Source: Thermofilum adornatum (GTDB taxonomy: Archaea; Thermoproteota; Thermoprotei; Thermofilales; Thermofilaceae). From it: a stretch of DNA of 32,000 bases. The position numbers and the translations under genes are program-made. The DNA lies in the NCBI RefSeq assembly GCF_000446015.1, contig NC_022093.1:720001-752000 (forward strand), written 5' to 3'. The notes beneath the pieces were generated by a model. That model was given only the letters and a program-made list of their open reading frames with translations, ran no database searches and was not told where the DNA came from. This document shows positions 3,348 to 17,160 of this stretch, piece by piece. How positions within the stretch are numbered: position 1 is the first letter of the stretch; the number at the start of each line of letters is the position of its first letter.

Positions 3348-3441
3348 TGGTGCCCCGGCCGGGATTTGAACCCGGGATCCTTGGCTCGAAAGGCCAATAT
3401 CCTGTCGGCCGTGCAGGCTGACCGGGCTAGACGACCGGGGC
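3348..3441 (-). tRNA. tRNA-Glu(UUC) with a ~15-16 nt insert in the D-loop; CCA encoded
   Basis: The reverse complement reads GCCCCGG-TC-GTCT-AGCCCGGTCA-[GCCTGCACGGCCGAC(A)]-GGAT-A-TTGGC-CTTTCGA-GCCAA-GGATC-CCGGG-TTCAAAT-CCCGG-CCGGGGC-A-CCA. The anticodon loop CT-TTC-GA gives the anticodon UUC. The gene is 94 nt against about 79 expected, and the excess lies between the D-stem halves. Confidence 0.85.
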
Positions 3442-7322: not shown

Positions 7323-7964
7323 GTGAAGCCTAGATCATTCGTGTTTAGTTTCGGTTTTCGTGAAGATCTTGTTCTTAGGCGGCTTGGGAGTCTTGCTATA
7401 CGTGGAAACGAAAAAATAGTGTTGTTTACGGGTAGCCCTATTGCCCAGGAGACAATCATGGCTTATAACCGGCTGAGAGACTACTGTTCAGAGGTGGGTC
7501 TGAAGAGGCCGAGACTTGTAGAGTTGCCGATTCCCGACTCTACAGAAGCTGTAATCAGAGTTAAACATGAAGTGAAGGGTCTAACTGAGCCGATTATTAC
7601 AGACCTGACAGATGGGAAGAAGTCGGTCTCTCTGGCTGTATTCATGGGTCTACTTCTCTCTGGAAAACTCTTCGAGGTCTTTATTTCCTCGGAGGCCCCG
7701 TTGGGGGAAGAGCTGTGGATACCGCCTGGCATAACAAAGGCTATGTTAGCTCTCAGCAAGGAGAAGCGCCAGATACTGGTAGTCATTTCGAGAAACAAGC
7801 ATTGCACCGTCGATTTAATAGCTCAGAAGGTAGGCCGTGCCCCGAAAACCATAAGGAATCATTTAGTAGATCTGAAAAAGATGGGGCTAGTTGTCTCCTT
7901 AGGCAAAGAAGGTGGCCTGAAGCTTACAAGTTGGGGCCGTGTTGTGTTAAGCGCATATAAGTGA
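7323..7964 (+). CDS. csa3: Csa3-family CRISPR-associated regulator (CARF domain plus C-terminal wHTH)
   Basis: 213 aa with a GTG start. The N-terminal half (SFVFSFGFREDLVLRRL..., EKIVLFTGSP, PIITDLTDGKKSVSLAVFMGLLL) follows the Csa3/CARF Rossmann pattern as I remember it from Sulfolobus Csa3. The C-terminal part, KRQILVVISRNKHCTVDLIAQKVGRAPKTIRNHLVDLKKMGLV, is a winged HTH. Confidence 0.7.
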   Translation: MKPRSFVFSFGFREDLVLRRLGSLAIRGNEKIVLFTGSPIAQETIMAYNRLRDYCSEVGLKRPRLVELPIPDSTEAVIRVKHEVKGLTEPIITDLTDGKKSVSLAVFMGLLLSGKLFEVFISSEAPLGEELWIPPGITKAMLALSKEKRQILVVISRNKHCTVDLIAQKVGRAPKTIRNHLVDLKKMGLVVSLGKEGGLKLTSWGRVVLSAYK

Positions 7965-8028
7965 ATTCTTATCATATACTCCATTTCGTTATAAACAAAT
8001 ATATCCTGGTGATACATAGTTAAATACG

Positions 8029-8838
8029 ATGCTTGTTGTATCCGCCTCGATAGAAGTCTACCCCATCCGCGATACAATTCTGCCACCATTTACAAGCAAG
8101 GTGACCCGGACTGCTTTCGCCTCTCTTTGGGGAGAAGAGCCCCTGCTGGGACGTCTGGGCTCTTTTAGCGTGCTTTACAGGGACGGCAAACCCCTCTACA
8201 AGCGACTAGACACAAGTGAGCTTTTAGTTGCAAGGGCTGGGGAAAGGCTAGAGGCAAGAGTATCGTTCCTGACAGGTGAGAGTCCTCCAGTGCCTGAGGA
8301 TTATTCAACCTTCATGTTCAGCGGGACAGAATTCAACACAAGAGTCACAGGGATAGAAGTTACAACACTAGAAAACCTGCGGATTGATTTGCCGAAAAAA
8401 TTCTCGCTAAAGTTCCTCACACCCACGCTTTTACCTGTCCCTGGAAGAGGAGAATTACTAAAAGAAAAAGGGGTAAAGAGGAGATACAAGCTTCTGCCAG
8501 ATCTCCCCTTGGCGCTACGCCTTCTCACTTATGACTTAAAACTGAAAAAAATAGACCTCATAAAGGCAACGCCCTTCCAGATATATAAATGGGCCTACAG
8601 GGCCCTAGCAGAGCTAGACTACCACGTCAAGCCCGAAACAGTTCTGTATACTGTCAGAGACGGAAAACCGTCAACAGAGAGAGGTTTCACGGGCTTTGTG
8701 CTATACGAGTTACTCGACGAAGCATCCCCCCTAAAACAAGAACTAGAAAAACTCCTGGCATTTGCGCTAAGGTTCGGCATAGGGAAATCTAGAAGCATTG
8801 GGTTCGGGCAGATTTCACTTCAGCCCATACGTAAGTAG
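8029..8838 (+). CDS. cas6: Cas6 CRISPR RNA endoribonuclease (RAMP)
   Basis: 269 aa. The C-terminal glycine-rich loop FGIGKSRSIGFGQI is the Cas6 hallmark. The protein has a two-RRM-like length and beta-rich sequence. The TATA-like TTATAAAC lies about 36 nt upstream. Confidence 0.7.
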   Translation: MLVVSASIEVYPIRDTILPPFTSKVTRTAFASLWGEEPLLGRLGSFSVLYRDGKPLYKRLDTSELLVARAGERLEARVSFLTGESPPVPEDYSTFMFSGTEFNTRVTGIEVTTLENLRIDLPKKFSLKFLTPTLLPVPGRGELLKEKGVKRRYKLLPDLPLALRLLTYDLKLKKIDLIKATPFQIYKWAYRALAELDYHVKPETVLYTVRDGKPSTERGFTGFVLYELLDEASPLKQELEKLLAFALRFGIGKSRSIGFGQISLQPIRK

Positions 8839-8923
8839 GGCGTCTACGCGCTTTTCTTGCATGGCAATAAATATATATGGTTGTTTTAATGGTCATGTGC
8901 GGGTCTTTGGAGGGGTGTAGTGT

Positions 8924-9436
8924 ATGCCGCTGAGGCCTGGTAAGTGCTATAGACACTTTGGGACTCCGCCCTATACTAGGCTAGAGTATATCAAGAGTAA
9001 TCCACCAGTGCTAGTTCCAAAGTTTGACCTTGGCAACCCTAAGGGTAACTTTAATACTATTGTAAAGCTTGTGGTATTAAAGCCTGGCCAGATCAGGGCA
9101 AACGCTCTGGAGGCCGCCAGGCAACATGCAAACAAGTACTTGTCTGCGAAAGTTGGCGACTCAAACTTCTTCCTGCGGTTGACAGTGTATCCGCACCATA
9201 TTCTGCGTGAGAACAAGATGATGGCAATGGCTGGCGCAGACAGGCTTCAGGACGGTATGAGGCTTTCCTTTGGCACTCCAGTCGGGAGGGCTGCCAGGGT
9301 GGACAGCATGCAGGTCATCATGTTTGTCAAGGTTGATGCAAAGAACGTTGACAAGGCAAAGGAGGCTTTACGCCGCGCCGCATCCAAGATTCCCCTGCCG
9401 AGCAGGATAATTGTCGAGACTGTAGGCGGTGCCTAG
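8924..9436 (+). CDS. rpl10e: 50S ribosomal protein L10e (uL16)
   Basis: The N-terminus MPLRPGKCYRHFGTPPYTRLEYI is typical of L10e. The protein is 170 aa. GGAGGGGTG lies just upstream. Confidence 0.9.
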   Translation: MPLRPGKCYRHFGTPPYTRLEYIKSNPPVLVPKFDLGNPKGNFNTIVKLVVLKPGQIRANALEAARQHANKYLSAKVGDSNFFLRLTVYPHHILRENKMMAMAGADRLQDGMRLSFGTPVGRAARVDSMQVIMFVKVDAKNVDKAKEALRRAASKIPLPSRIIVETVGGA

Positions 9437-9479
9437 AGATAGATGACTGGTTTTACTTTAACTGTTAATTGTTTCCTGT

Positions 9480-10184
9480 GTGGGGTTGCTGGGGTTGTCA
9501 GAGCTACATAAGAAGCGTATAGAAGTAGCTGTAAATATATGGGGCGAGATACTTAACGGTTCTTTTTCTTCCCGCGAGGAACTTGTCTCATACCTAGAGG
9601 AGGTCTACAGGACAAATAGACTTGAGCCGATAAGGGGCAAGACAAAGATAAATATCTGGGACAAGGAGCTTGCGACCCTGTACGTCGTTGGAAAGTATGG
9701 CTTGGCGCTTGAGGAGGAGCTCTACAGTTTCCAGAACTTATTCGACATAGAGGTTAAAGCTGACAGAACTATCAGTGCCGTGCTTGAGGGCAGGGATCCA
9801 AGGACAACTCTCCGCGAGCATTTTGGCTCCGAAGATGAGGATCATGTCTTCAGGGTTCTACGGCTGGCAATGACCTCCGTAGTTCTGGGCTTTATGGATG
9901 AGGAGTCATTCATCAAGATACTGGCCGAGTTCGAGAAGGCCTTCCCAGAGCTACGTGAAAACTTTGCAAGCTTCAAGAGGTTCTATATTGCATTTAGGAT
10001 GGCTGAAATGATTGCCTCCGGCAAGATCAGGAACAGAATCGAAAAGGAGGCATACAAGCATGCGATGTGCGTAAAGCTGAACGCCGACAAGTCGGCTCCC
10101 CCCGACGACTTTATACGAGACATAGTTGTCTCTACGTTCAGGGTTCCCGAGCACAGGGCAAACGGGGTTCTGCGGATGGCCTAG
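9480..10184 (+). CDS. conserved hypothetical protein (possibly the archaeal DUF2192 family; name from memory, unverified)
   Basis: 234-aa ORF with a GTG start and helical, non-repetitive composition. It is wedged between two r-protein genes on the same strand. No catalytic motif was recognised. Confidence 0.5.
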   Translation: MGLLGLSELHKKRIEVAVNIWGEILNGSFSSREELVSYLEEVYRTNRLEPIRGKTKINIWDKELATLYVVGKYGLALEEELYSFQNLFDIEVKADRTISAVLEGRDPRTTLREHFGSEDEDHVFRVLRLAMTSVVLGFMDEESFIKILAEFEKAFPELRENFASFKRFYIAFRMAEMIASGKIRNRIEKEAYKHAMCVKLNADKSAPPDDFIRDIVVSTFRVPEHRANGVLRMA

Positions 10185-10262
10185 CCTGTGCCAGATACGT
10201 AAGGTTTTTATACGGTAGCTGTTAAAGAGAATTGCTTTAATAAGTGGTGTAGGGGCAAGTTT

Positions 10263-10556
10263 ATGCCGAAGAAACGTAAGAGCCGTGGTCGTCATAAGGG
10301 TGGAAAGGGCAAGGAAGACCTCGTACAGTGCGACGAGTGTGGAGCACTTGTTCCAAGATCTAAGGCAGTAAAGATAACCAAGCCTGTCATGCCTGTAGAC
10401 CCGTCACTTGCGAAAGAGCTGAGAGACAAGGGAGCCATCCTCCCACAATACACGGTGACCAAGTATCTGTGTCTGCGCTGCGCGATTTACCGCGGAATAA
10501 TAAAGATTAGGCCAGAGGAAGAGAGGAAACAGCAGAAGCTTAAGCTACCATTCTAG
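10263..10556 (+). CDS. rps26e: 30S ribosomal protein S26e (eS26)
   Basis: MPKKRKSRGRHKGGKG...VQCDECGALVPRSKAV...CLRCAIY: a basic N-terminus and a Cys4 zinc motif as in eS26. Confidence 0.9.
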   Translation: MPKKRKSRGRHKGGKGKEDLVQCDECGALVPRSKAVKITKPVMPVDPSLAKELRDKGAILPQYTVTKYLCLRCAIYRGIIKIRPEEERKQQKLKLPF

Positions 10557-10562
10557 GCATAG

Positions 10563-11168
10563 ATGTTTCTCGAAAAGTTATCACGAATATTTTCTGTTTT
10601 TTCTTTTAACAGGATATACATAGTCTACTCAAACACTGCTGTCACCGCTCCAGTTTTTACGCCTGAATCCATGGCTACAGCCGGAGGGAGGATGGACGTC
10701 GTAGCCAGGTCCATTCTCTATGCATTATATGACCAAATAGAGCAACGCGGAGACACGCTCTTCATAGGACTTCTAAATGGATCACCGAGGCCTCCAGTAG
10801 CTCTCTATGCGTGGAGATTGTCCTTGCAAAACAGGTCAGAGCTTGAGGTTGGCGAAGCTATACGTAGGGCTCTCTCGGGCGAGAGGCTGGACGGCATAGA
10901 GGTGGAGAACGGCGCCAGAATCACAGATATCCTTGAGACCGTGAGGAAAACACACAGGGTATACCTCCTAGACGAGTCTGGCATGCATTTTTCCCATTTT
11001 ACATTTACAGGGAAGAACGCTTTTATTCTTGGGGATCACATTGGGATTCCTGCTTGGATAATATCCTCTATTGAGAACATGCTGGACGGCGCGGTTAGCC
11101 TAGGAAAGAAGCCTTACCTTACTAGCCACTGTATAGCTTTTCTCAATGAGCTTATGGATCGAGCTTAG
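10563..11168 (+). CDS. trmY: tRNA (pseudouridine54-N1)-methyltransferase TrmY (SPOUT, DUF358)
   Basis: GGRMDVVARSILYAL, NGSPRPPVALY, FILGDHIGIP and SLGKKPYLTSHCIAFLNELMD parallel, from memory, M. jannaschii TrmY (GRLDLLCRCV, GQPNPPVCI, FIIGDHIGI, SLSPLELHANHCITIIHNVLD). Confidence 0.75.
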   Translation: MFLEKLSRIFSVFSFNRIYIVYSNTAVTAPVFTPESMATAGGRMDVVARSILYALYDQIEQRGDTLFIGLLNGSPRPPVALYAWRLSLQNRSELEVGEAIRRALSGERLDGIEVENGARITDILETVRKTHRVYLLDESGMHFSHFTFTGKNAFILGDHIGIPAWIISSIENMLDGAVSLGKKPYLTSHCIAFLNELMDRA

Positions 11169-13066
11169 CTTGAGGTAAATCCAGCCTCGGCGAATATTTC
11201 CTCTATCTTCCTTGGGGAGGGTCTAGAGGCGAGGGCATTTATAGATACTTCATCTAGTGTTTTCTGTGGATCGTAGTAGAGGACTAGTCGTTTCAGCTCT
11301 TCCATATTGTTCGAGTAGCATCGGGGACATTGTGATGTCTTTACTTGGGAGACTTCGCCACAGTTGAGACACATGTAAAGATTTGCCCTGGTCACTGTGA
11401 ATCCTCGCAGACCTACCCTGTATAGTTGCTTTAATGCCAGGGAGAGGTCTGCTGGAGTAATGCTTTTCACGACTATTTCTGGAACGCTGACGAGTCCTCT
11501 GGATGCGTGGAGTTCTCCCTCAAGTCTAAGATTGTTTGCGATGCTTCTTTTTAGATTGTCACTGTAGATAAACGGGGAAAAATTATTCACGTATTCTGGA
11601 TACATTGTTCTCCAGGCCCTGGCTACTATATGTATATTTCTGTTTGGACTGAAGTAGACGTTTAAAGTGTCTTGACTGTATTCCTTGCTCAGCTTTGTCA
11701 CTTCTTCTATGAATCCTCTTGCTGAGACGAGAAGTCTCTCTAAATAGGACGGTGTTCCCCAAGACTCTATGTAGGCTGGCTGGCTCTGGAGAAGGGTTGG
11801 TTCGTACCCGGGGTATGAAAACTGGAAGGCATAGCTTGGAGTATCCTTTAAGACTTCGCCTATTAGCCTTACGACTCCCGCGCCCCGTCTCTGAAGATTC
11901 TCAAACAGCCGAGCAGAGCTCCTATAAACATCGAGCAGGATGTCTAGTGGGTCTATATTGGTGTCCTTAGATCTGTACAATGTAGGTAACAGGATGCTTA
12001 TGCTTCCAGCCAGTGCTAGGGGTCTATCTATGTTTGGGACAAGAAAGAAGTCCCCTGCCAATACTTTGTCTTCAAATGTGAAGACCAAAGGTACGCCAAG
12101 GTTAATAAGTCTGGTAATGTTCTTTAGGTCTTCCTGGCAAACTGAGTCAGGTTTGTTGACATAAACAGACACTAGGAAATTGTTGGGCGGGAGTTGTCCT
12201 AGCCTTAATAGTTCTATTAGGACTCTGCTTGGCTCTCCGCTAAGAGTTATGGACAAGGTCAGCTTAGTGATGCTTGCCAAAACCTCTAGTATCCTAATGG
12301 AGTCACTGTTCACATTGTCGTCAAGCCTGACAATTACGCCTCGAACCTTTTTACTCAACTTTACAAGTTTTCTGAGGGATTCGGTGGATGATATCGGGAG
12401 ATATATGGCCTGTATTCCTGTTACCCAGTTCACATCGAAAAGGGCTATACCGCTTGCTAGGGGTTCTAGGAGCCCGACTTCTGCCAAAAGATTGGTGTCA
12501 ATACTGTTTCCCGGGAAGGATTCCTCGTTCCCGATCGATATGTGGATGTCGATGTTTTCACGTAGACAGTTACTCGTCATACATTTCTCGAGGAGGAAGA
12601 GTTTAACAATGTTCTCGGGTACAAGTGTCGAGCCGAGCTTTTCGTCGACAAGTGAATATGTATCGAGGAGTACTTTTCTCTTTGTGTCGCGCTTTATCCC
12701 AGGTCTGCAAACATTTTCTAGCAGGGTCTCCATATAAGTTTCGAGGGGGATTACTATCCCGTTTTCTAGGAGCACCGACCTGTATTCCGGCTCCTTAGAT
12801 TTGACTAGGAGTTCATCTAGGTTTGCTAGGACTTTTTCCCCGAGATGAGTGAGACAGTAATACTCGTTTGACGAGTGTATGAGGCCAGCTTTCGACAATT
12901 GTTTAAGGTGAAAAGCTAGTTTCTCAGGTGTTATGTCTAGTTTTTCTGCTAGGTCGCTAAAACGCATATGTTTCTGGTCCCGCAGGACAAAAAGTATGCG
13001 TAACCTAACCTCGTTTGAAAGAGCCTTAAGTACCCCGGCAATTGATTCTGCGCCAGACAATGACAC
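11165..13066 (-). CDS. ArsR-type wHTH protein fused to an ATP-cone-like segment, a large NrdD (class III RNR)-like body and a C-terminal zinc ribbon; function unknown
   Basis: 633 aa with a GTG start. A minus-strand TATA-like CCTAAATAACC lies about 27 nt upstream. The wHTH is LSNEVRLRILFVLRDQKHMRFSDLAEKLDITPEKLAFHLKQLSKAGLI. The zinc ribbon is CLNCGEVSQVKTSQCPRC (nt 11318-11371). The NrdD likeness is argued in the findings. Confidence 0.8.
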   Translation of the reverse strand: MSLSGAESIAGVLKALSNEVRLRILFVLRDQKHMRFSDLAEKLDITPEKLAFHLKQLSKAGLIHSSNEYYCLTHLGEKVLANLDELLVKSKEPEYRSVLLENGIVIPLETYMETLLENVCRPGIKRDTKRKVLLDTYSLVDEKLGSTLVPENIVKLFLLEKCMTSNCLRENIDIHISIGNEESFPGNSIDTNLLAEVGLLEPLASGIALFDVNWVTGIQAIYLPISSTESLRKLVKLSKKVRGVIVRLDDNVNSDSIRILEVLASITKLTLSITLSGEPSRVLIELLRLGQLPPNNFLVSVYVNKPDSVCQEDLKNITRLINLGVPLVFTFEDKVLAGDFFLVPNIDRPLALAGSISILLPTLYRSKDTNIDPLDILLDVYRSSARLFENLQRRGAGVVRLIGEVLKDTPSYAFQFSYPGYEPTLLQSQPAYIESWGTPSYLERLLVSARGFIEEVTKLSKEYSQDTLNVYFSPNRNIHIVARAWRTMYPEYVNNFSPFIYSDNLKRSIANNLRLEGELHASRGLVSVPEIVVKSITPADLSLALKQLYRVGLRGFTVTRANLYMCLNCGEVSQVKTSQCPRCYSNNMEELKRLVLYYDPQKTLDEVSINALASRPSPRKIEEIFAEAGFTSS

Positions 13067-13133
13067 AGAGAAGATAATTGCTGAGGGGTTATTTAGGGGT
13101 TGCTTTCTCCCTGTTTTCCCGAGAAGTAATTAG

Positions 13134-15077
13134 TCACATTTTTGATGGTGGCTCTATCCCCAGCATGTTCAAGCCGTTCCTGACCACCGTACGCACCATG
13201 TATACGACTGCCAGCCTTGAGTTTTTCTTCTCGGGCGTAGGGGCTTTAAGCACTGGGTAGTGATCGTAATAGTAGTTGAACTCCGATGCAAGCGTGTTGA
13301 GGTAATTGGTTAATATGTCTGGCCTCAAGTTGTCAGCGGCCTGCTTAACAGCTTCTGGGAACTGTCCAAGGAGAAATATTAAGGCATGCTCCTCCTCACC
13401 CACCTCGGAGACGCTGAGGCTGTCAAGTGATATCCCCTCTTCTCTAGCTTTCTCAAGAATGCTGTTTGCACGGACATAGCTATACTGAACAAAGGGTCCA
13501 CTGTTCTGCTCAAAGTTGAGTATTCTATCCCAGTCAAATGTGAGAACCTTGTTCGGGGAGGTGCTAAGGAAGAAAAACTTCAAAGCGCCAAGCCCAACTT
13601 TCTCGGCGTCTTCTTCTCTGCCTATCCCCCTCTTCTTTATCTCTGCCTTTGCCCTGGAGACAGCCTCTTCAAGCACATCGTCTGCTGCAACATATACGCC
13701 TTTCCTGCTCGTCATTCTTGTACCAGGCAAGTTGACCATCTCATAGGAATAATGTATAAGCCTCTCGCCAATGTCTCTGTAGCCAAGAACATATAGGGCT
13801 AGCCTGAGCTGTGCCTGTGCAAGGGTCTGTTGGACGGCAATCACATTTATGACTCTGTCTGCCTTGGAAAGCTTCCAGATTGAGTAAGCAATGTCACGCG
13901 TAGTATACAGTGTTGTTCCGTCAGACCTTATAAGTGTCATTGGTGTAATGTCAAGGCCTTTAGGTATCCCAGCACGGCTTCTAGCTTCCTCAGACTCTGC
14001 TACCAGGTCAGCCCTAAATACGAGAGCGCCATCTTTTCGCTCGACGTAACCGCTGTCTCTAAGTTTTTCCAAGACGTCCTCCGTAAGACCGCTCCAAACA
14101 GTTATCTCGCTTTCCCAGTCCCAGCTGTCAAAAAATATGCCGAGCCTGTTCAGTGTTTCACGGATACCATCCATACAGTAGCTGATCATTCCGCGTACAA
14201 GTCTTATTGCTTCTCTATCGCCTTTCTCGTACCCCCTGTTCAGCCTCCTTATCTCCTCTTCAGGATCCTCTACATTATTCACCCAGGACGAGAGTTTTTC
14301 GAAGGCATCTGGTAGCCTTTCTGCATATTCCTTCAGCCTCCACATGTAGTCGGAGATTTTCCTGTTTATTTCTGGCGCGGTGTTTTCGTCTGCCTTCTCG
14401 AGCTCTTTCTTGAGTTTCTTTATCTCGATCAAGAGGTTAATCATTGTATAGAGTGAGCCAACATAATGGTCCCTCTTCATTGAAGACTTCGCGGTTTCGG
14501 CGACCCTGTAAGCCATAGCGGCGTAGGCAACCTGTAACCCTACGTCATCAATGTAGAAGTGTGTCTTGACATTGTGCCCCCTACTCTTGAGAAGCCTTGC
14601 AATAGTGTCGCCCAGTACACCGTTTCTCAGATGGCCGATATGCAGTGGGTGGATAGGGTTAGCACTTACATGTTCTACGATAATTTTCCGGGTCTCAGTA
14701 GAAGGTACACTGCCATAGGAGTCTCCAAGCCTAGTAACAGAGTTGAAAACTATCTCCGCGTACCTCTTCTCGTCAATGACAATGTTAAGGAAACCATTAA
14801 CAACACTGCTACTCTTGACAAGCCCCGAAGGCTTATAGCCCGACAAAACAGATACAAGTTCCTCAAACTTCACACCGGAAGTCCTAGCAAGCTTCGAAAC
14901 AGGCACGGCTAAGTCTCCGTACTCTCTTCGTGTCGCTTGTAGCTCTACGGCGTCAGGAGGAATGTTCAGCCCGTTAGTCTTAAAGAAACCTATGAGAGTC
15001 TCCCTGACACTTGTAACAAGCCATTCATAGGGGTTATGTATGATTGCCTCCGGCAAATCTATCTCCCAGCAAAACAT
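13134..15077 (-). CDS. argS: arginyl-tRNA synthetase
   Basis: HIGH-type motif SANPIHPLHIGHLRNGVLGD, the MTSRKG (KMSK-equivalent) loop, and a C-terminal DALR-type anticodon-binding region ending ...GIEPPSKM. I placed the start at the ATG at 15077 (MFCWEI...). The longer ORF that runs to a TTG at 15164 would overlap the HIT gene, but it remains possible. Confidence 0.9.
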   Translation of the reverse strand: MFCWEIDLPEAIIHNPYEWLVTSVRETLIGFFKTNGLNIPPDAVELQATRREYGDLAVPVSKLARTSGVKFEELVSVLSGYKPSGLVKSSSVVNGFLNIVIDEKRYAEIVFNSVTRLGDSYGSVPSTETRKIIVEHVSANPIHPLHIGHLRNGVLGDTIARLLKSRGHNVKTHFYIDDVGLQVAYAAMAYRVAETAKSSMKRDHYVGSLYTMINLLIEIKKLKKELEKADENTAPEINRKISDYMWRLKEYAERLPDAFEKLSSWVNNVEDPEEEIRRLNRGYEKGDREAIRLVRGMISYCMDGIRETLNRLGIFFDSWDWESEITVWSGLTEDVLEKLRDSGYVERKDGALVFRADLVAESEEARSRAGIPKGLDITPMTLIRSDGTTLYTTRDIAYSIWKLSKADRVINVIAVQQTLAQAQLRLALYVLGYRDIGERLIHYSYEMVNLPGTRMTSRKGVYVAADDVLEEAVSRAKAEIKKRGIGREEDAEKVGLGALKFFFLSTSPNKVLTFDWDRILNFEQNSGPFVQYSYVRANSILEKAREEGISLDSLSVSEVGEEEHALIFLLGQFPEAVKQAADNLRPDILTNYLNTLASEFNYYYDHYPVLKAPTPEKKNSRLAVVYMVRTVVRNGLNMLGIEPPSKM

Positions 15078-15147
15078 ACTTGGTACACATAAAAAGATTA
15101 GCTCTATGCGCTTCCGGCTGAAAGTATACACTATTGAGCTTAGAGCT

Positions 15148-15660
15148 TTAATGCATTGTTTCAAATGTTTTGAATATCTCTACGTGTTTTATGAGCTTCC
15201 TATATGTGTCTTTCAGTGCCTCTGGAATGACTTTTGTATCTGCAATTACAGGCATAAAGTTCGTGTCGCCGTTCCAGCGTGGCACGACATGTATGTGTAG
15301 GTGGCTTTCTAGACCGGCGCCAGCTACCCTGCCAAGGTTTACCCCAATGTTGAAACCGTCTGGCGAGAAGGCTCTCTTAATAACCTCGATCGACTGTACT
15401 AGGGCTTTTGAGAGTGCTAGAAGTTCCTCGTCGCTTAGCTGTGCAAAGTCGGCGACGTGTCTGTTTGGGGCTATTAAGAGATGGCCCGTGTTGTAGGGGA
15501 ACTTGTTCATCAGGATGATTACATGTTTGCCTTTATATAGGACGAGGTTTTCCTCGAGGTTATCGGATTTTGTAGCGTTACATATGAAGCATCCTTGTTC
15601 CTTGCCGACTTTCGCGTATTCAATGTACGCCATGCGCCAGGGAGCAAATAGCGTGTCCAT
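15148..15660 (-). CDS. HIT (histidine triad) family nucleotide hydrolase/transferase
   Basis: Histidine triad HLHIHVVPRW, plus KFPYNTGHLLIAPNRHV. I placed the start at the ATG at 15660 (MDTLFAPWRMAYIEY). A minus-strand AAAATTTTTATAG box lies about 30 nt upstream. Confidence 0.85.
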   Translation of the reverse strand: MDTLFAPWRMAYIEYAKVGKEQGCFICNATKSDNLEENLVLYKGKHVIILMNKFPYNTGHLLIAPNRHVADFAQLSDEELLALSKALVQSIEVIKRAFSPDGFNIGVNLGRVAGAGLESHLHIHVVPRWNGDTNFMPVIADTKVIPEALKDTYRKLIKHVEIFKTFETMH

Positions 15661-15693
15661 ACGTATTACTTGGGTAGACAATCTATAAAAATT

Positions 15694-17160
15694 TTAGAGC
15701 ATCTTGTCTACTTCTGTCCCAAAGATGGATGACTGGAGTCTCCTAGCCTCAGCCACTATTTCCTCACTGTTTTTCTCCCCCAGTATGCCGGCCACCTTTT
15801 CTGCAAACAATTTATACTTCTCGGCTAGGCTACGTGGAAGAATTTCATATTCGACAAGCTCTTGGAATTCTTCTTGATCAGTGACTTGTACGCCTTCCAT
15901 AGGCGAATACGTAACGTCCATTGCTAGGTCAACGTATTTCAGGCCTGGGGGCTGGAATGCAAAGAAAACAGGAGTGTTGAGGTTCACATATATTCCCTTT
16001 AGCTCCCCCGTGGGGGAATAATAGAAGTGGATAATAGTGCGAGCAAAGAGCCAGGTATAGGATACTATCTGGTCTCCCTCCTCGCGGCGGATATTCTTGA
16101 ACCCGTCATAAGTCCCCTGGGAAGAGCTCTGGCGTCTCAACTGGACATATCCAGGGCTCCGAATCTCTGCAACCGCGCTCCACACGTGTCCCTGCCCTGT
16201 CAGTTTTTTATGGAAGATGCTTACCCTAGAGCCGTGGAGCTTAGCGAATTCTTCCATAATAGCCTCTAGGACTTTTTCGCGGGAAAAACAGCGGCCGCTC
16301 AGGACATTCTTCTCAGCGAAGTCTATCTTATGGCTCAACTCCTCTATGCCTAGGCTCTTCAACAAGTGGTGGAAAGGAATAGTAGTGAAGTAACGTTCAC
16401 GAATGGTGTCAAACTTTAAAGCGGTGTCTGGAGGTATCTCGACGAGTGCTAGGGATTCTCCAACCATTACAGGTCCGATGCTTTGGGGCTTGAACACGTT
16501 GAGAAATTCTGTGGCCTTTTTCAGGAGTTCTTTGATTTCCCTCCCAACATCCAGTATATTCGCGTTCTTGGCGGCGCTCCTAAAATGTACACCCCAGCCC
16601 TGTGGAACCTCGTTCATGGCTAGGGTCAGTAGCTGTAATCTAAGCTCTGCATCCCTTATGTGCTCGCTTGTGTTGTGTCTCTCAAATTGTATGAGTCTCA
16701 CGTATCGGCCAGTCAACGCCGCGCCCTCCTTGAGTAGAGGTGCTTCCGGCGAAGCCCTGGTCACGTGTGCTAATAGGAGATCCCCCTCAGAGTGGCTGTT
16801 GCGAAGTTTTACTGTACAGAACCTGCCAGGCATGTACTCTGCAAGCCAGATGTCCCCGTCTACCCTCTCAACTAGTCTGACGACATACATGGAGTATGGA
16901 CCCACAGGCACATAGCCAACAATAAGGTCAGGGATTATACTTCTCAACAGGAATACAACCTTCGCCAAAAGCTCCGGGTCGCCCAGGATTATGAGCCCAG
17001 ACCTGTCGTCCTGGTCCTTGATCGTCAATAGTACCTCGCTATGTTTCTTTAGCGCCGGAAACCTCTCCTGTATATCTATACTTACATCTGCAAATCTGTA
17101 GCCAGCCTCGTCGAGCAGACCTGTAACTGCAGTAGCATAAATACCTCTAACTCTTATCAA
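15694..17160 (-). CDS. fau-1: FAU-1 / RNase E/G-like RNA-binding protein (C-terminal DUF402-type domain)
   Basis: The N-terminus MIRVRGIYATAVTGLLDEAGY matches the FAU-1 signature (..RIRGIYATALTKLL). The protein is 488 aa with a TTG start. It ends 4 nt from the upstream Rpp21 gene on the same strand. Confidence 0.75.
   Translation of the reverse strand: MIRVRGIYATAVTGLLDEAGYRFADVSIDIQERFPALKKHSEVLLTIKDQDDRSGLIILGDPELLAKVVFLLRSIIPDLIVGYVPVGPYSMYVVRLVERVDGDIWLAEYMPGRFCTVKLRNSHSEGDLLLAHVTRASPEAPLLKEGAALTGRYVRLIQFERHNTSEHIRDAELRLQLLTLAMNEVPQGWGVHFRSAAKNANILDVGREIKELLKKATEFLNVFKPQSIGPVMVGESLALVEIPPDTALKFDTIRERYFTTIPFHHLLKSLGIEELSHKIDFAEKNVLSGRCFSREKVLEAIMEEFAKLHGSRVSIFHKKLTGQGHVWSAVAEIRSPGYVQLRRQSSSQGTYDGFKNIRREEGDQIVSYTWLFARTIIHFYYSPTGELKGIYVNLNTPVFFAFQPPGLKYVDLAMDVTYSPMEGVQVTDQEEFQELVEYEILPRSLAEKYKLFAEKVAGILGEKNSEEIVAEARRLQSSIFGTEVDKML

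Follow-up and report, generated by a model that had tools for sequence, protein, structure and literature searches.

The 32,000-nt stretch of Thermofilum adornatum DNA analysed here (the window) contains an ORF of 633 aa (nt 11165–13066, minus strand, GTG start) that poses a simple question: what is the greater part of this presumed ArsR-type regulator? Typical ArsR/SmtB regulators are small homodimers of about 100–120 aa that sense metals or thiols through sites in the wHTH, while here the winged helix-turn-helix (wHTH) makes up the first 90 or so residues of a far longer protein. The initial annotation described a wHTH, an ATP-cone-like segment, a body resembling class III ribonucleotide reductase (RNR; NrdD) and a CxxC-x10-CxxC zinc ribbon, in that order, and this architecture was upheld. 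Reading from the N-terminus, an ArsR-type wHTH is followed by a domain with the ATP-cone fold and a barrel of RNR type, then by a zinc ribbon of the NrdD type and a remnant of the glycyl-radical domain, i.e. a wHTH fused to an apparently catalytically dead class III RNR-like protein.

Distribution and genomic context

The family is rare, with 10 clusters among 1.84 billion representatives, and all named members belong to the Thermofilaceae (T. adornatum, T. pendens (A1RXM8) and Infirmifilum), where they are annotated as "ArsR regulator" and nothing more. Another match from the representative search, P0011, was dropped; it is a low-complexity tandem-repeat protein. A scan of GTDB genomes, with search patterns that were too degenerate, returned a single locus, in Infirmifilum. 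The orthologues P0001 (97% identity) and P0002 (49%) are colinear with the T. adornatum protein from end to end.

Genomic neighbourhoods were compared between the window and loci L001–L005, L007, L035 and L036. The gene occupies a fixed housekeeping locus, flanked upstream by genes that vary and on its other side by a convergent Methyltrn_RNA_2-S26e-DUF2192-L10e block, and synteny is kept down to 24% identity. The family has been under long-term conservation at this chromosomal position. Its constant translation-gene neighbours are convergent, and therefore not co-transcribed with it. Where the contig reached, no RNR gene was found within 6–10 kb of the family gene at any of the compared loci. 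The 32-kb window has neither a radical-SAM/NrdG gene nor an RNR gene, and NrdG genes are likewise missing from the flanks of 5 orthologous loci, so that the lack of a nearby activase gene, pointed out in the initial annotation, holds for the window and these loci.

A TATA-like box, CTAAATAA (nt 13089–13096, minus strand), lies 22 nt 5' of the GTG. The identical box and spacing are found at L001, the locus of a 49%-identity orthologue, which suggests a promoter of the gene's own and a leaderless transcript. No upstream autoregulatory palindrome is shared by the five orthologous loci compared. The gene had also been described as more AT-rich than its neighbours. This is true but trivial: its G+C content is 0.453, compared to 0.481 for the window and 0.46–0.515 for neighbouring genes. 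Horizontal transfer, or an AT-rich island, was ruled out, the gap of 2.8 points being inside the range of the neighbours and the locus syntenic; given the synteny conserved across the family, nothing points to a foreign origin.

The winged helix and the ATP-cone fold

The wHTH (residues about 12–81; nt 12824–13033, minus strand) is of the ArsR/SmtB type, as first annotated. It matches Pfam HTH_5 (5e-10, 39.5 bits, exceeding the cut-off of 22), DUF7347 (3.9e-9) and the NCBIfam ArsR/SmtB model (2.3e-13, 49.7 bits, under the subfamily cut-off of 55), and a family profile compared with PDB sequences gave ArsR-family matches down to 5e-9. Including its recognition helix, LAxHLKxL, it is the best-conserved part of the protein, and is followed by a long helix (residues 74–90).

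The following domain (residues 92–172; nt 12551–12793, minus strand) consists of a beta-hairpin and helices when modelled by itself with AF2 (pLDDT 92.5). The top 27 Foldseek matches in the PDB are all ATP-cones, with query-normalised TM scores of 0.45–0.75, the first being NrdR (7p37; TM 0.75, rmsd 2.1 Å); for 9fxk the E value is 2e-3. The proposal of an ATP-cone-like segment thus stands as regards the fold, the isolated model matching only ATP-cones, but not as regards sequence similarity, as hhalign comparisons with ATP-cones were not significant (E 0.1–0.6). No match to the Pfam ATP-cone is listed for the 633-aa protein at E ≤ 10, and this domain is missing among the 25 most frequent Pfam matches of the family. 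In ATP-cones the basic pair of the motif VxKRDG contacts the nucleotide phosphates. The canonical K-R reads L-E in the T. adornatum protein (VLLENG), and a conserved basic pair is absent across 11 family representatives.

The predicted RNR-type barrel

The body (residues about 190–560; nt 11387–12499, minus strand) was assigned using AF2 and Foldseek. The full-length model, for which the input MSA held only 11 sequences, has a pLDDT of 86.3 and a pTM of 0.82, with all five models in agreement. The predicted fold is that of RNRs, whose alpha/beta barrel is 10-stranded and surrounds a central finger loop. When the predicted structure was compared with the PDB, the top 12 matches were class III RNRs (E 9e-11 to 2e-6, probability 1.0), and class I/II RNRs came next, which bears out the NrdD-like body of the initial annotation at the level of predicted structure.

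Sequence comparisons give a graded picture. By hhalign, the full-length family aligns with a wHTH-NRDD family of Nitrososphaeria (described below) with an E value of 4.8e-10 (probability 96.6, 559 columns). For the body including the ribbon, profile-profile E values are 1.7e-5 against the Nitrososphaeria family and 2.1e-7 when the NrdD superfamily was combined into one profile; E values from shuffled controls were 0.13–0.59, and a reversed-sequence control already reached 0.03 because the ribbon reads alike in both directions. Without the ribbon, the barrel gave 0.066 against the sister family and 0.025 against the combined profile, neither significant alone. Against PDB sequences, the full-protein and body profiles found wHTH and zinc-ribbon matches only and no NrdD barrel, the NrdD of P. 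copri surfacing at the ribbon only (E 0.097), and comparison by hhalign with an NrdD profile of E. coli type yielded an E value of 0.004 at a probability of 9%. Scores fall below the thresholds of the NrdD HMMs (TIGR02487, PF13597), with 18.1 bits, over residues 543–604 only, against a cut-off of 326, and Pfam NRDD matches weakly in 2 of 11 members. Since similarity of the barrel by itself is not significant, its assignment depends largely on a single AF2 prediction from 11 sequences. Colinearity of the alignment extends across 465–559 columns, and the polar barrel residues Q415, E422, E516 and S527 are invariant in the family.

Radical residues, zinc ribbon and tail

Secondary structure, the colinear alignment and a column census place a predicted finger-loop hairpin at residues 334–344 (nt 12035–12067, minus strand). 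Its tip reads A-G-D-F in the T. adornatum protein and P-S in most members. None of the 11 members has a Cys at the tip (residues 337–340), where NrdD has its thiyl-radical Cys (E. coli C384), nor is there a conserved Cys anywhere in their barrels. The strand LAGSISILLPTLY (residues 352–364; nt 11975–12013, minus strand) aligns with NLGVISLNLPRIA of NrdD, so that the internal strand of NrdD type was correctly recognised; the NrdD strand has two Asn positions, and each is occupied by Leu in the T. adornatum protein.

The zinc ribbon, C566-x2-C569-x10-C580-x2-C583, lies exactly where it was originally placed (nt 11318–11371, minus strand). Its four cysteines are the only invariant ones in the family alignment (11 representatives), and align with C644, C647, C662 and C665 of E. 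coli NrdD. Weak C-terminal NrdD HMM matches occur in 7 of the 11 members. Beyond the ribbon, the segment L591-K-R593-L-V-L596-Y597-Y598 (nt 11273–11296, minus strand) is a remnant of the glycyl-radical motif, V-T-R-R-V-C-G-Y in NrdD; R593, L596 and Y598 are conserved, the invariant Tyr598 matching the Tyr of 'GY'. It had been claimed that a Leu takes the place of the radical Gly. The loss of Gly is confirmed, but the register was wrong: in the profile alignment E. coli Gly681 is opposite Tyr597, and it is Cys680 that is opposite Leu596. Among the 11 members, position 597 is Y, F, V, A, R, S or L and position 596 is L or P, with Gly at neither position in any of them. With both the radical Gly and the finger-loop Cys missing in 11 of 11 aligned members, catalysis is, to judge from sequence, lost. 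Profile alignments stop short of the C-terminal tail (residues 599–633; nt 11168–11272, minus strand); in a visual comparison its consensus, D-P-x3-E-E-x3-R, is like the NrdD tail N-x-G-K-x-E-E-V-x-x-R.

A sister family in Nitrososphaeria

The architecture of the T. adornatum protein is not unique, as thousands of uncharacterised database proteins share the combination of wHTH, cone and NRDD. The Nitrososphaeria family (e.g. P0013, P0070, P0101) carries a DUF7347 wHTH, an ATP-cone and Pfam NRDD. It is much larger than the Thermofilaceae family and Pfam-recognisable (NRDD 6e-41), and its similarity to NrdD is clear (hhalign 1.4e-19; T. maritima NrdD 5e-13, T4 NrdD 1e-11), yet it likewise lacks the radical Gly and the catalytic Cys. 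Its members are labelled either 'anaerobic ribonucleoside-triphosphate reductase' or 'ArsR family transcriptional regulator' in databases. At 4 of 4 loci the gene is directly upstream of nrdJ, encoding a class II RNR, in the same direction and at a distance of about 160–330 nt, and one of these loci also holds thyA and a thioredoxin gene. The sequence TTGTCAA occurs in the region upstream of nrdJ.

Both families are from Thermoproteota (in the GTDB sense) and share the same kind of wHTH as well as the cone, barrel and ribbon, in colinear arrangement. They differ at the C-terminus, where the Nitrososphaeria proteins stop right after the ribbon and have no glycyl-radical tail, whereas the Thermofilaceae family keeps a remnant of it. 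They also differ in that the former has a Pfam-detectable ATP-cone and the nrdJ locus, while the latter, far more divergent, has a degenerate cone and sits among translation genes. A literature search for the Nitrososphaeria wHTH-ATP-cone-NRDD family or the Thermofilaceae family found none, and a full-text search for wHTH-NrdD fusions or DUF7347 likewise returned nothing.

Comparison with known systems

Class III NrdD enzymes (T4, E. coli, T. maritima, P. copri, S. thermophilus) share with the T. adornatum protein the order of ATP-cone, finger-loop barrel, four-Cys ribbon and C-terminal tail, and the strand GxxSxxLP and post-ribbon R-x-x-x-x-Y can be aligned. In contrast to NrdD, the archaeal protein has an N-terminal wHTH, has neither radical Gly nor thiyl Cys, and has its Asn positions replaced; its barrel is about 100 residues shorter, the protein scores under every NrdD HMM threshold, and no NrdG gene is nearby.

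Regulation of RNRs is well understood in bacteria, via NrdR, and much less so in archaea. Bacterial NrdR (about 150 aa) provides the best structural match to residues 92–172, and the two would have a presumed logic in common, by which a nucleotide-binding module derived from RNR governs a DNA-binding module. NrdR, however, is composed of an N-terminal DNA-binding zinc ribbon and an ATP-cone, with no wHTH and no RNR barrel, whereas the ribbon of the T. adornatum protein is C-terminal and of NrdD type, and the canonical ATP/dATP-binding residues are not conserved. The protein is outside the NrdR family. Archaeal NrdR is reported from some lineages only (PMC9110341). A parallel in construction is found in archaeal wHTH regulators fused to sensor domains derived from enzymes, such as RbkR, a riboflavin-kinase/regulator (PMC5397151); both combine a wHTH with an enzyme or enzyme-derived ligand-binding domain, but the enzyme scaffold is a different one and catalysis has been lost in the present case. 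No description of an RNR scaffold as the sensor of a wHTH regulator was found in the searchable literature.

Predicted function

The reading favoured here, with moderate confidence, is that of a one-component DNA-binding regulator, so far restricted to Thermofilaceae, with a class III RNR, complete yet catalytically inactive, as its sensor/oligomerisation module. By analogy, the most likely role of the T. adornatum protein would be that of an NrdR-like ligand-responsive regulator, and the nucleotide-sensing function originally proposed gains indirect support because the sister family adjoins nrdJ. The RNR-like body may dimerise as RNRs do, and a palindromic operator would then be contacted by the pair of wHTH domains. 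A small ligand, of which a nucleotide or dNTP is the most plausible kind, could bind a surviving allosteric or substrate site of the RNR, or the altered cone, and would then shift the quaternary arrangement, and DNA binding along with it, as ATP/dATP do for bacterial NrdR. Likely targets, by analogy with the nrdJ-linked family, would be genes of deoxynucleotide metabolism. Several observations speak against this reading: the K-R pair is missing from the cone, at the Thermofilaceae loci compared the gene does not adjoin an RNR gene, no conserved palindrome precedes it, and similarity of the barrel alone is not significant.

An appreciable though minority chance is given to the body being a mere dimerisation or structural scaffold that binds no ligand, the protein being a constitutive DNA-binding, chromatin-type factor and no sensor. 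The cone without canonical nucleotide-binding residues, the divergence of the body past HMM recognition and a housekeeping neighbourhood that offers no metabolic link are all compatible with this. A scaffold, however, would seem to need less than about 540 conserved residues that include the ribbon, the tail motif R..L.Y and invariant Q415, E422, E516 and S527, and the sister family retains a Pfam-detectable ATP-cone and its link to nrdJ. It is improbable that the protein works mainly through protein contacts, as a decoy or partner subunit that forms heterodimers with a genuine RNR or titrates an activase, with the wHTH secondary. The wHTH with its recognition helix LAxHLKxL is the best-conserved part, the nrdJ product is a class II enzyme that needs no activase, and neither NrdD nor NrdG genes are in the neighbourhood; these points weigh against the retained RNR fold, zinc ribbon and remnant of the activase-docking glycyl-radical domain, and against the possible co-expression of the sister gene, co-directional and about 160–330 nt before nrdJ.

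That structure prediction from a shallow alignment produced a spurious barrel, leaving just the wHTH and a generic zinc ribbon as real, is very unlikely. The MSA of 11 sequences, the non-significant barrel-only comparisons (E 0.025–0.066) and a reversed-sequence control of 0.03 would allow it, but the five models are concordant (pLDDT 86, pTM 0.82), the top matches all come from a single enzyme family and are followed by other RNR classes, the separately modelled N-terminal domain is the ATP-cone that precedes the barrel in NrdD, the alignment is colinear across 465–559 columns, and the match to NrdD continues past the ribbon in the tail motif. Least credible, to the point of being nearly dismissed, is an unconventional RNR or glycyl-radical enzyme that has acquired a DNA-binding domain. 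Although the overall NrdD domain order is kept and the sister family bears the reductase label, all 11 members lack Gly at the radical position and next to it and have no finger-loop or conserved barrel Cys, the NrdD HMM score is 18 bits against 326, and no activase gene was found nearby.

Returning to a regulator with a dead RNR as its sensor, a broader and more tentative proposal can be made for the Thermoproteota, including the ammonia-oxidising Nitrososphaeria: the dead class III RNR-wHTH may serve as a transcription factor, sensing nucleotide pools and regulating nrdJ and genes of dNTP metabolism, an archaeal counterpart of NrdR built from the enzyme itself. The Thermofilaceae would then be an ancient offshoot that retained the glycyl-radical remnant but not the canonical cone residues, moved away from the RNR locus and now perhaps senses a different ligand. 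The thousands of 'anaerobic ribonucleoside-triphosphate reductase' entries in aerobic Nitrososphaeria are probably misannotated regulators, and in Thermofilaceae the plain label 'ArsR regulator' appears, from the structural model, to hide an unrecognised RNR-derived body of about 540 residues. If true, the proposal would provide a clear example of a radical enzyme converted to a pseudoenzyme sensor, and the wHTH family with its dead-NrdD sensor would be a testable candidate for a regulator of archaeal dNTP supply, including in the globally abundant ammonia oxidisers, where its gene is adjacent to nrdJ.

Gene boundaries and promoter

The target gene is a 633-aa ORF (nt 11165–13066, minus strand) with a GTG start. 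It agrees with the initial annotation in its extent and, to the nucleotide, in the position of its zinc ribbon (nt 11318–11371). A TATA-like sequence, CTAAATAA (nt 13089–13096), lies 22 nt 5' of the GTG, and both box and spacing are identical in the locus (L001) of an orthologue sharing 49% identity. Transcription from a promoter of its own, giving a leaderless mRNA, is therefore probable, a reading that also draws on general knowledge of crenarchaeal promoters. One T. adornatum database entry, N186_04245, is 600 aa long, 33 residues less than the ORF called here, and presumably starts at the internal Met34; this start (affecting nt 12967–13066) would remove the first helices of the winged helix (wHTH). 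Conservation of residues 13–30 across the Thermofilaceae orthologues supports the GTG at nt 13066. The gene is AT-rich, as had been noted (G+C 0.453 vs 0.481 for the window), but trivially so, the neighbouring genes ranging from 0.46 to 0.515.

Upstream, the ArgRS gene ends 67 nt away on the same strand. On the other side lies a convergent Methyltrn_RNA_2 gene (nt 10563–11168), the stop codons overlapping by 4 nt (nt 11165–11168); tail-to-tail overlaps of the same pair occur in L001 (18 nt) and in another family locus, L035 (4 nt). Elsewhere in the window, genes for Csa3 (CARF + wHTH) and Cas6 (nt 7323–8838) are located between a tRNA-Arg gene and a ribosomal protein block, and ARAGORN predicts a 94-nt tRNA-Ala (GGC) at nt 3348–3441, which the Rfam tRNA model does not report at its gathering threshold and which may be an intron-containing archaeal tRNA.

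Domain architecture

By sequence, the N-terminal ArsR-type wHTH is the one domain with a clear score. Residues 12–81 match Pfam HTH_5 (5e-10) and DUF7347 (3.9e-9), the NCBIfam ArsR/SmtB model gives 2.3e-13, and the family profile matches ArsR-family structures (HlyU, CadC, NolR) down to 5e-9, in line with the winged helix first described. The one further signal is weak: residues 543–604 match NrdD models at their C-terminal end (TIGR02487, 8e-4, 18 bits where the cut-off is 326), a match that recurs independently among the 11 family members (TIGR02827 in 7, NF006127 in 6, TIGR02487 in 4).

An AlphaFold2 model built from the 11-sequence alignment (mean pLDDT 86.3, pTM 0.82) shows alternating beta/alpha units, with a beta-hairpin (residues 334–344) between two half-barrels. 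In a Foldseek search of the PDB the top 12 matches were all class III RNRs, including S. thermophilus 9dca (9e-11), T. maritima 4col, 4coj and 4u3e, and P. copri 8p2s, with probability 1.0 and TM scores of 0.37–0.49, normalised to all 633 residues including the wHTH, which has no alignable counterpart. Class I and II RNRs follow at about 1e-4, and neither pyruvate formate-lyase nor any other fold intervenes between the RNR classes in this list. The body is thus predicted to have an RNR-like fold, as the NrdD-like body of the initial annotation implied.

The ATP-cone proposed there stood as a fold, but not as a sequence similarity (hhalign E 0.1–0.6). Modelled in isolation, residues 92–172 reached a pLDDT of 92.5, and the top 27 PDB matches were all ATP-cones: NrdR proteins (E. 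coli 9fxk, 2e-3; S. coelicolor 7p37, TM 0.75, rmsd 2.1 Å), with cones from class I and class III RNRs next. VLLENG stands in place of the 'VxKRDG' hairpin in the target protein, and the basic pair is conserved nowhere in the family. Together these argue that the modelled cone retains the fold but that canonical ATP/dATP binding is doubtful.

Loss of catalytic residues

For reference we used E. coli NrdD (sequence from NC_000913), in which, following the NrdD literature, we take the key residues to be C384 (thiyl), C644/647/662/665 (zinc) and G681 (radical). Profile alignment places its R677-R-V-C680-G681-Y682 opposite R593-L-V-L596-Y597-Y598. A radical glycine is found at the aligned position in none of the 11 members, where residue 597 is variously Y, F, V, A, Y, R, S, L, R, A and L; residue 596 is Leu in all but one (Pro), and Y598 is invariant. 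The glycine is indeed absent, as claimed, although the Leu assigned to its position was out of register by one. No member has Cys at the finger-loop tip (337–340), and Cys is invariant nowhere but at the four ribbon positions. The strand LAGSISILLPTLY lies opposite NLGVISLNLPRIA, and both Asn positions are Leu in the target protein. Beyond the motif, the consensus D-P-x3-E-E-x3-R resembles, by eye, the NrdD tail N-A-G-K-Q-E-E-V-K-R-R. With the aligned R593–Y598 motif and this tail, the family keeps the shell of the glycyl-radical domain. The 32-kb window carries no radical-SAM gene, and hence no NrdG-type activase, as already remarked, and no RNR gene.

The Thermofilaceae family and its sister family

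An exhaustive phmmer search of 1.84 billion cluster representatives with residues 96–633 returned 11 matches, of which 10 are real, each 574–639 aa long and of one common architecture. The other, P0011 (665 aa of ~67-aa tandem repeats), reached 1e-7 through seven short stretches and was rejected as an unrelated low-complexity artefact. Besides T. adornatum, the named members are T. pendens Hrk5 (ABL77958.1, UniProt A1RXM8), Infirmifilum sp., Thermofilum sp. and Thermofilaceae MAGs, labelled 'ArsR family' or 'HxlR family' regulators, or 'hypothetical'. Leaving out one fragmentary 3.7-kb contig (L041), the gene is convergent with Methyltrn_RNA_2-S26e-DUF2192-L10e in all loci examined, down to 24% identity. 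Such constancy marks it as a core gene that Thermofilaceae inherit vertically, not a recent acquisition.

The nearest relatives are uncharacterised Nitrososphaeria proteins. One, P0013, was recovered by profile search and has Pfam matches to a DUF7347/HTH_20 wHTH, ATP-cone (6e-7) and NRDD (6e-41). Its body gave 3489 matches, the best 120 of which are all ~695 aa with this architecture; sources named among these 120 are Nitrososphaerales, Thaumarchaeota, Methylarchaceae and unclassified archaeal MAGs. Their labels include 'ArsR family transcriptional regulator', 'helix-turn-helix domain-containing protein' and, for many, 'anaerobic ribonucleoside-triphosphate reductase (formate)', probably a misannotation. 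A 12-sequence profile of this sister family (A4) matches an E. coli-type NrdD profile at 1.4e-19; against NrdD sequences it reaches 5e-13 (T. maritima) and 1e-11 (T4). Residues other than Cys occupy the positions aligned to E. coli C384 and C175. Unlike the Thermofilaceae family, these proteins lack the glycyl-radical domain, since they end just after the zinc ribbon.

Full profiles of the two families align colinearly over 559 columns (hhalign probability 96.6, E 4.8e-10). Without the wHTH the value is 1.7e-5, or 2.1e-7 against a combined Nitrososphaeria and NrdD profile (465 colinear columns, low mact); controls gave 0.03 (reversed) and 0.13–0.59 (column-shuffled). The barrel minus its ribbon scores 0.066 against the sister family and 0.025 against the combined profile, and a body-only profile matched ribbons and nothing further among PDB sequences, so that assignment of the barrel leans on the structure prediction, on a domain order exactly that of NrdD, and on the cone and C-terminal motifs to either side.

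In all four loci examined the sister gene (L037, nt 8001–10049; L038, 8001–10100; L039, 5001–7088; L040, 5001–7079) immediately precedes the class II RNR gene nrdJ on the same strand. L038 has thyA and a thioredoxin gene just upstream as well. The nrdJ of L037 (nt 10208–15721, 1837 aa) has intein and LAGLIDADG domains, and is thus an intein-containing class II RNR. The heptamer TTGTCAA (extended, TTTTGTCAAT) occurs in L037 (nt 10137), L039 (7190), L040 (7187) and L038 (10280), preceding the nrdJ start by 71–77 nt in three of them and by 153 nt in the fourth, with only 1–4 copies per 12–18 kb locus. Upstream of the regulator gene, AAATACTTTTGAC is common to L037 and L039, and L039 has an inverted repeat, GTGTCAA-N14-TTGACAC. 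These elements represent a candidate operator.

Functional interpretation

Because of the nrdJ linkage, regulation of RNR is the natural reading for the sister family; in the Thermofilaceae branch, gene context points to neither target nor ligand. The RNR-like body would dimerise as RNR alpha2 does, so that a dyad operator would face a pair of wHTH domains, and a ligand bound either to the altered cone or to an RNR site that has survived would shift this arrangement and so change DNA binding. We hold the architecture with high confidence, and the full NrdR-like functional model with roughly balanced expectation.

Unlikely, but to be kept in mind, is that the body with its altered cone is a scaffold without sensing; a protein–protein decoy is distinctly less probable. 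That the barrel is an artefact of prediction, a concern given its ribbon-less scores, is very improbable beside the uniform class III matches. A still-active enzyme is hardly credible: the Gly and Cys are missing and the HMM score is far below threshold, and the protein does not belong to NrdD. Nor is it a member of NrdR, because its architecture differs, the likeness being at most one of mode of working; and it is not a typical small sensor of the ArsR/SmtB group.

Neither family is described in the full texts searched, most subscription journals lying outside them. One-component regulators that pair a wHTH with an enzyme-derived sensor are a known design, and to our knowledge an RNR scaffold has not been described in that role to date. 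Here a DNA-binding wHTH shares one polypeptide with a complete, radical-dead NrdD-like module, an arrangement conserved across a whole archaeal family.
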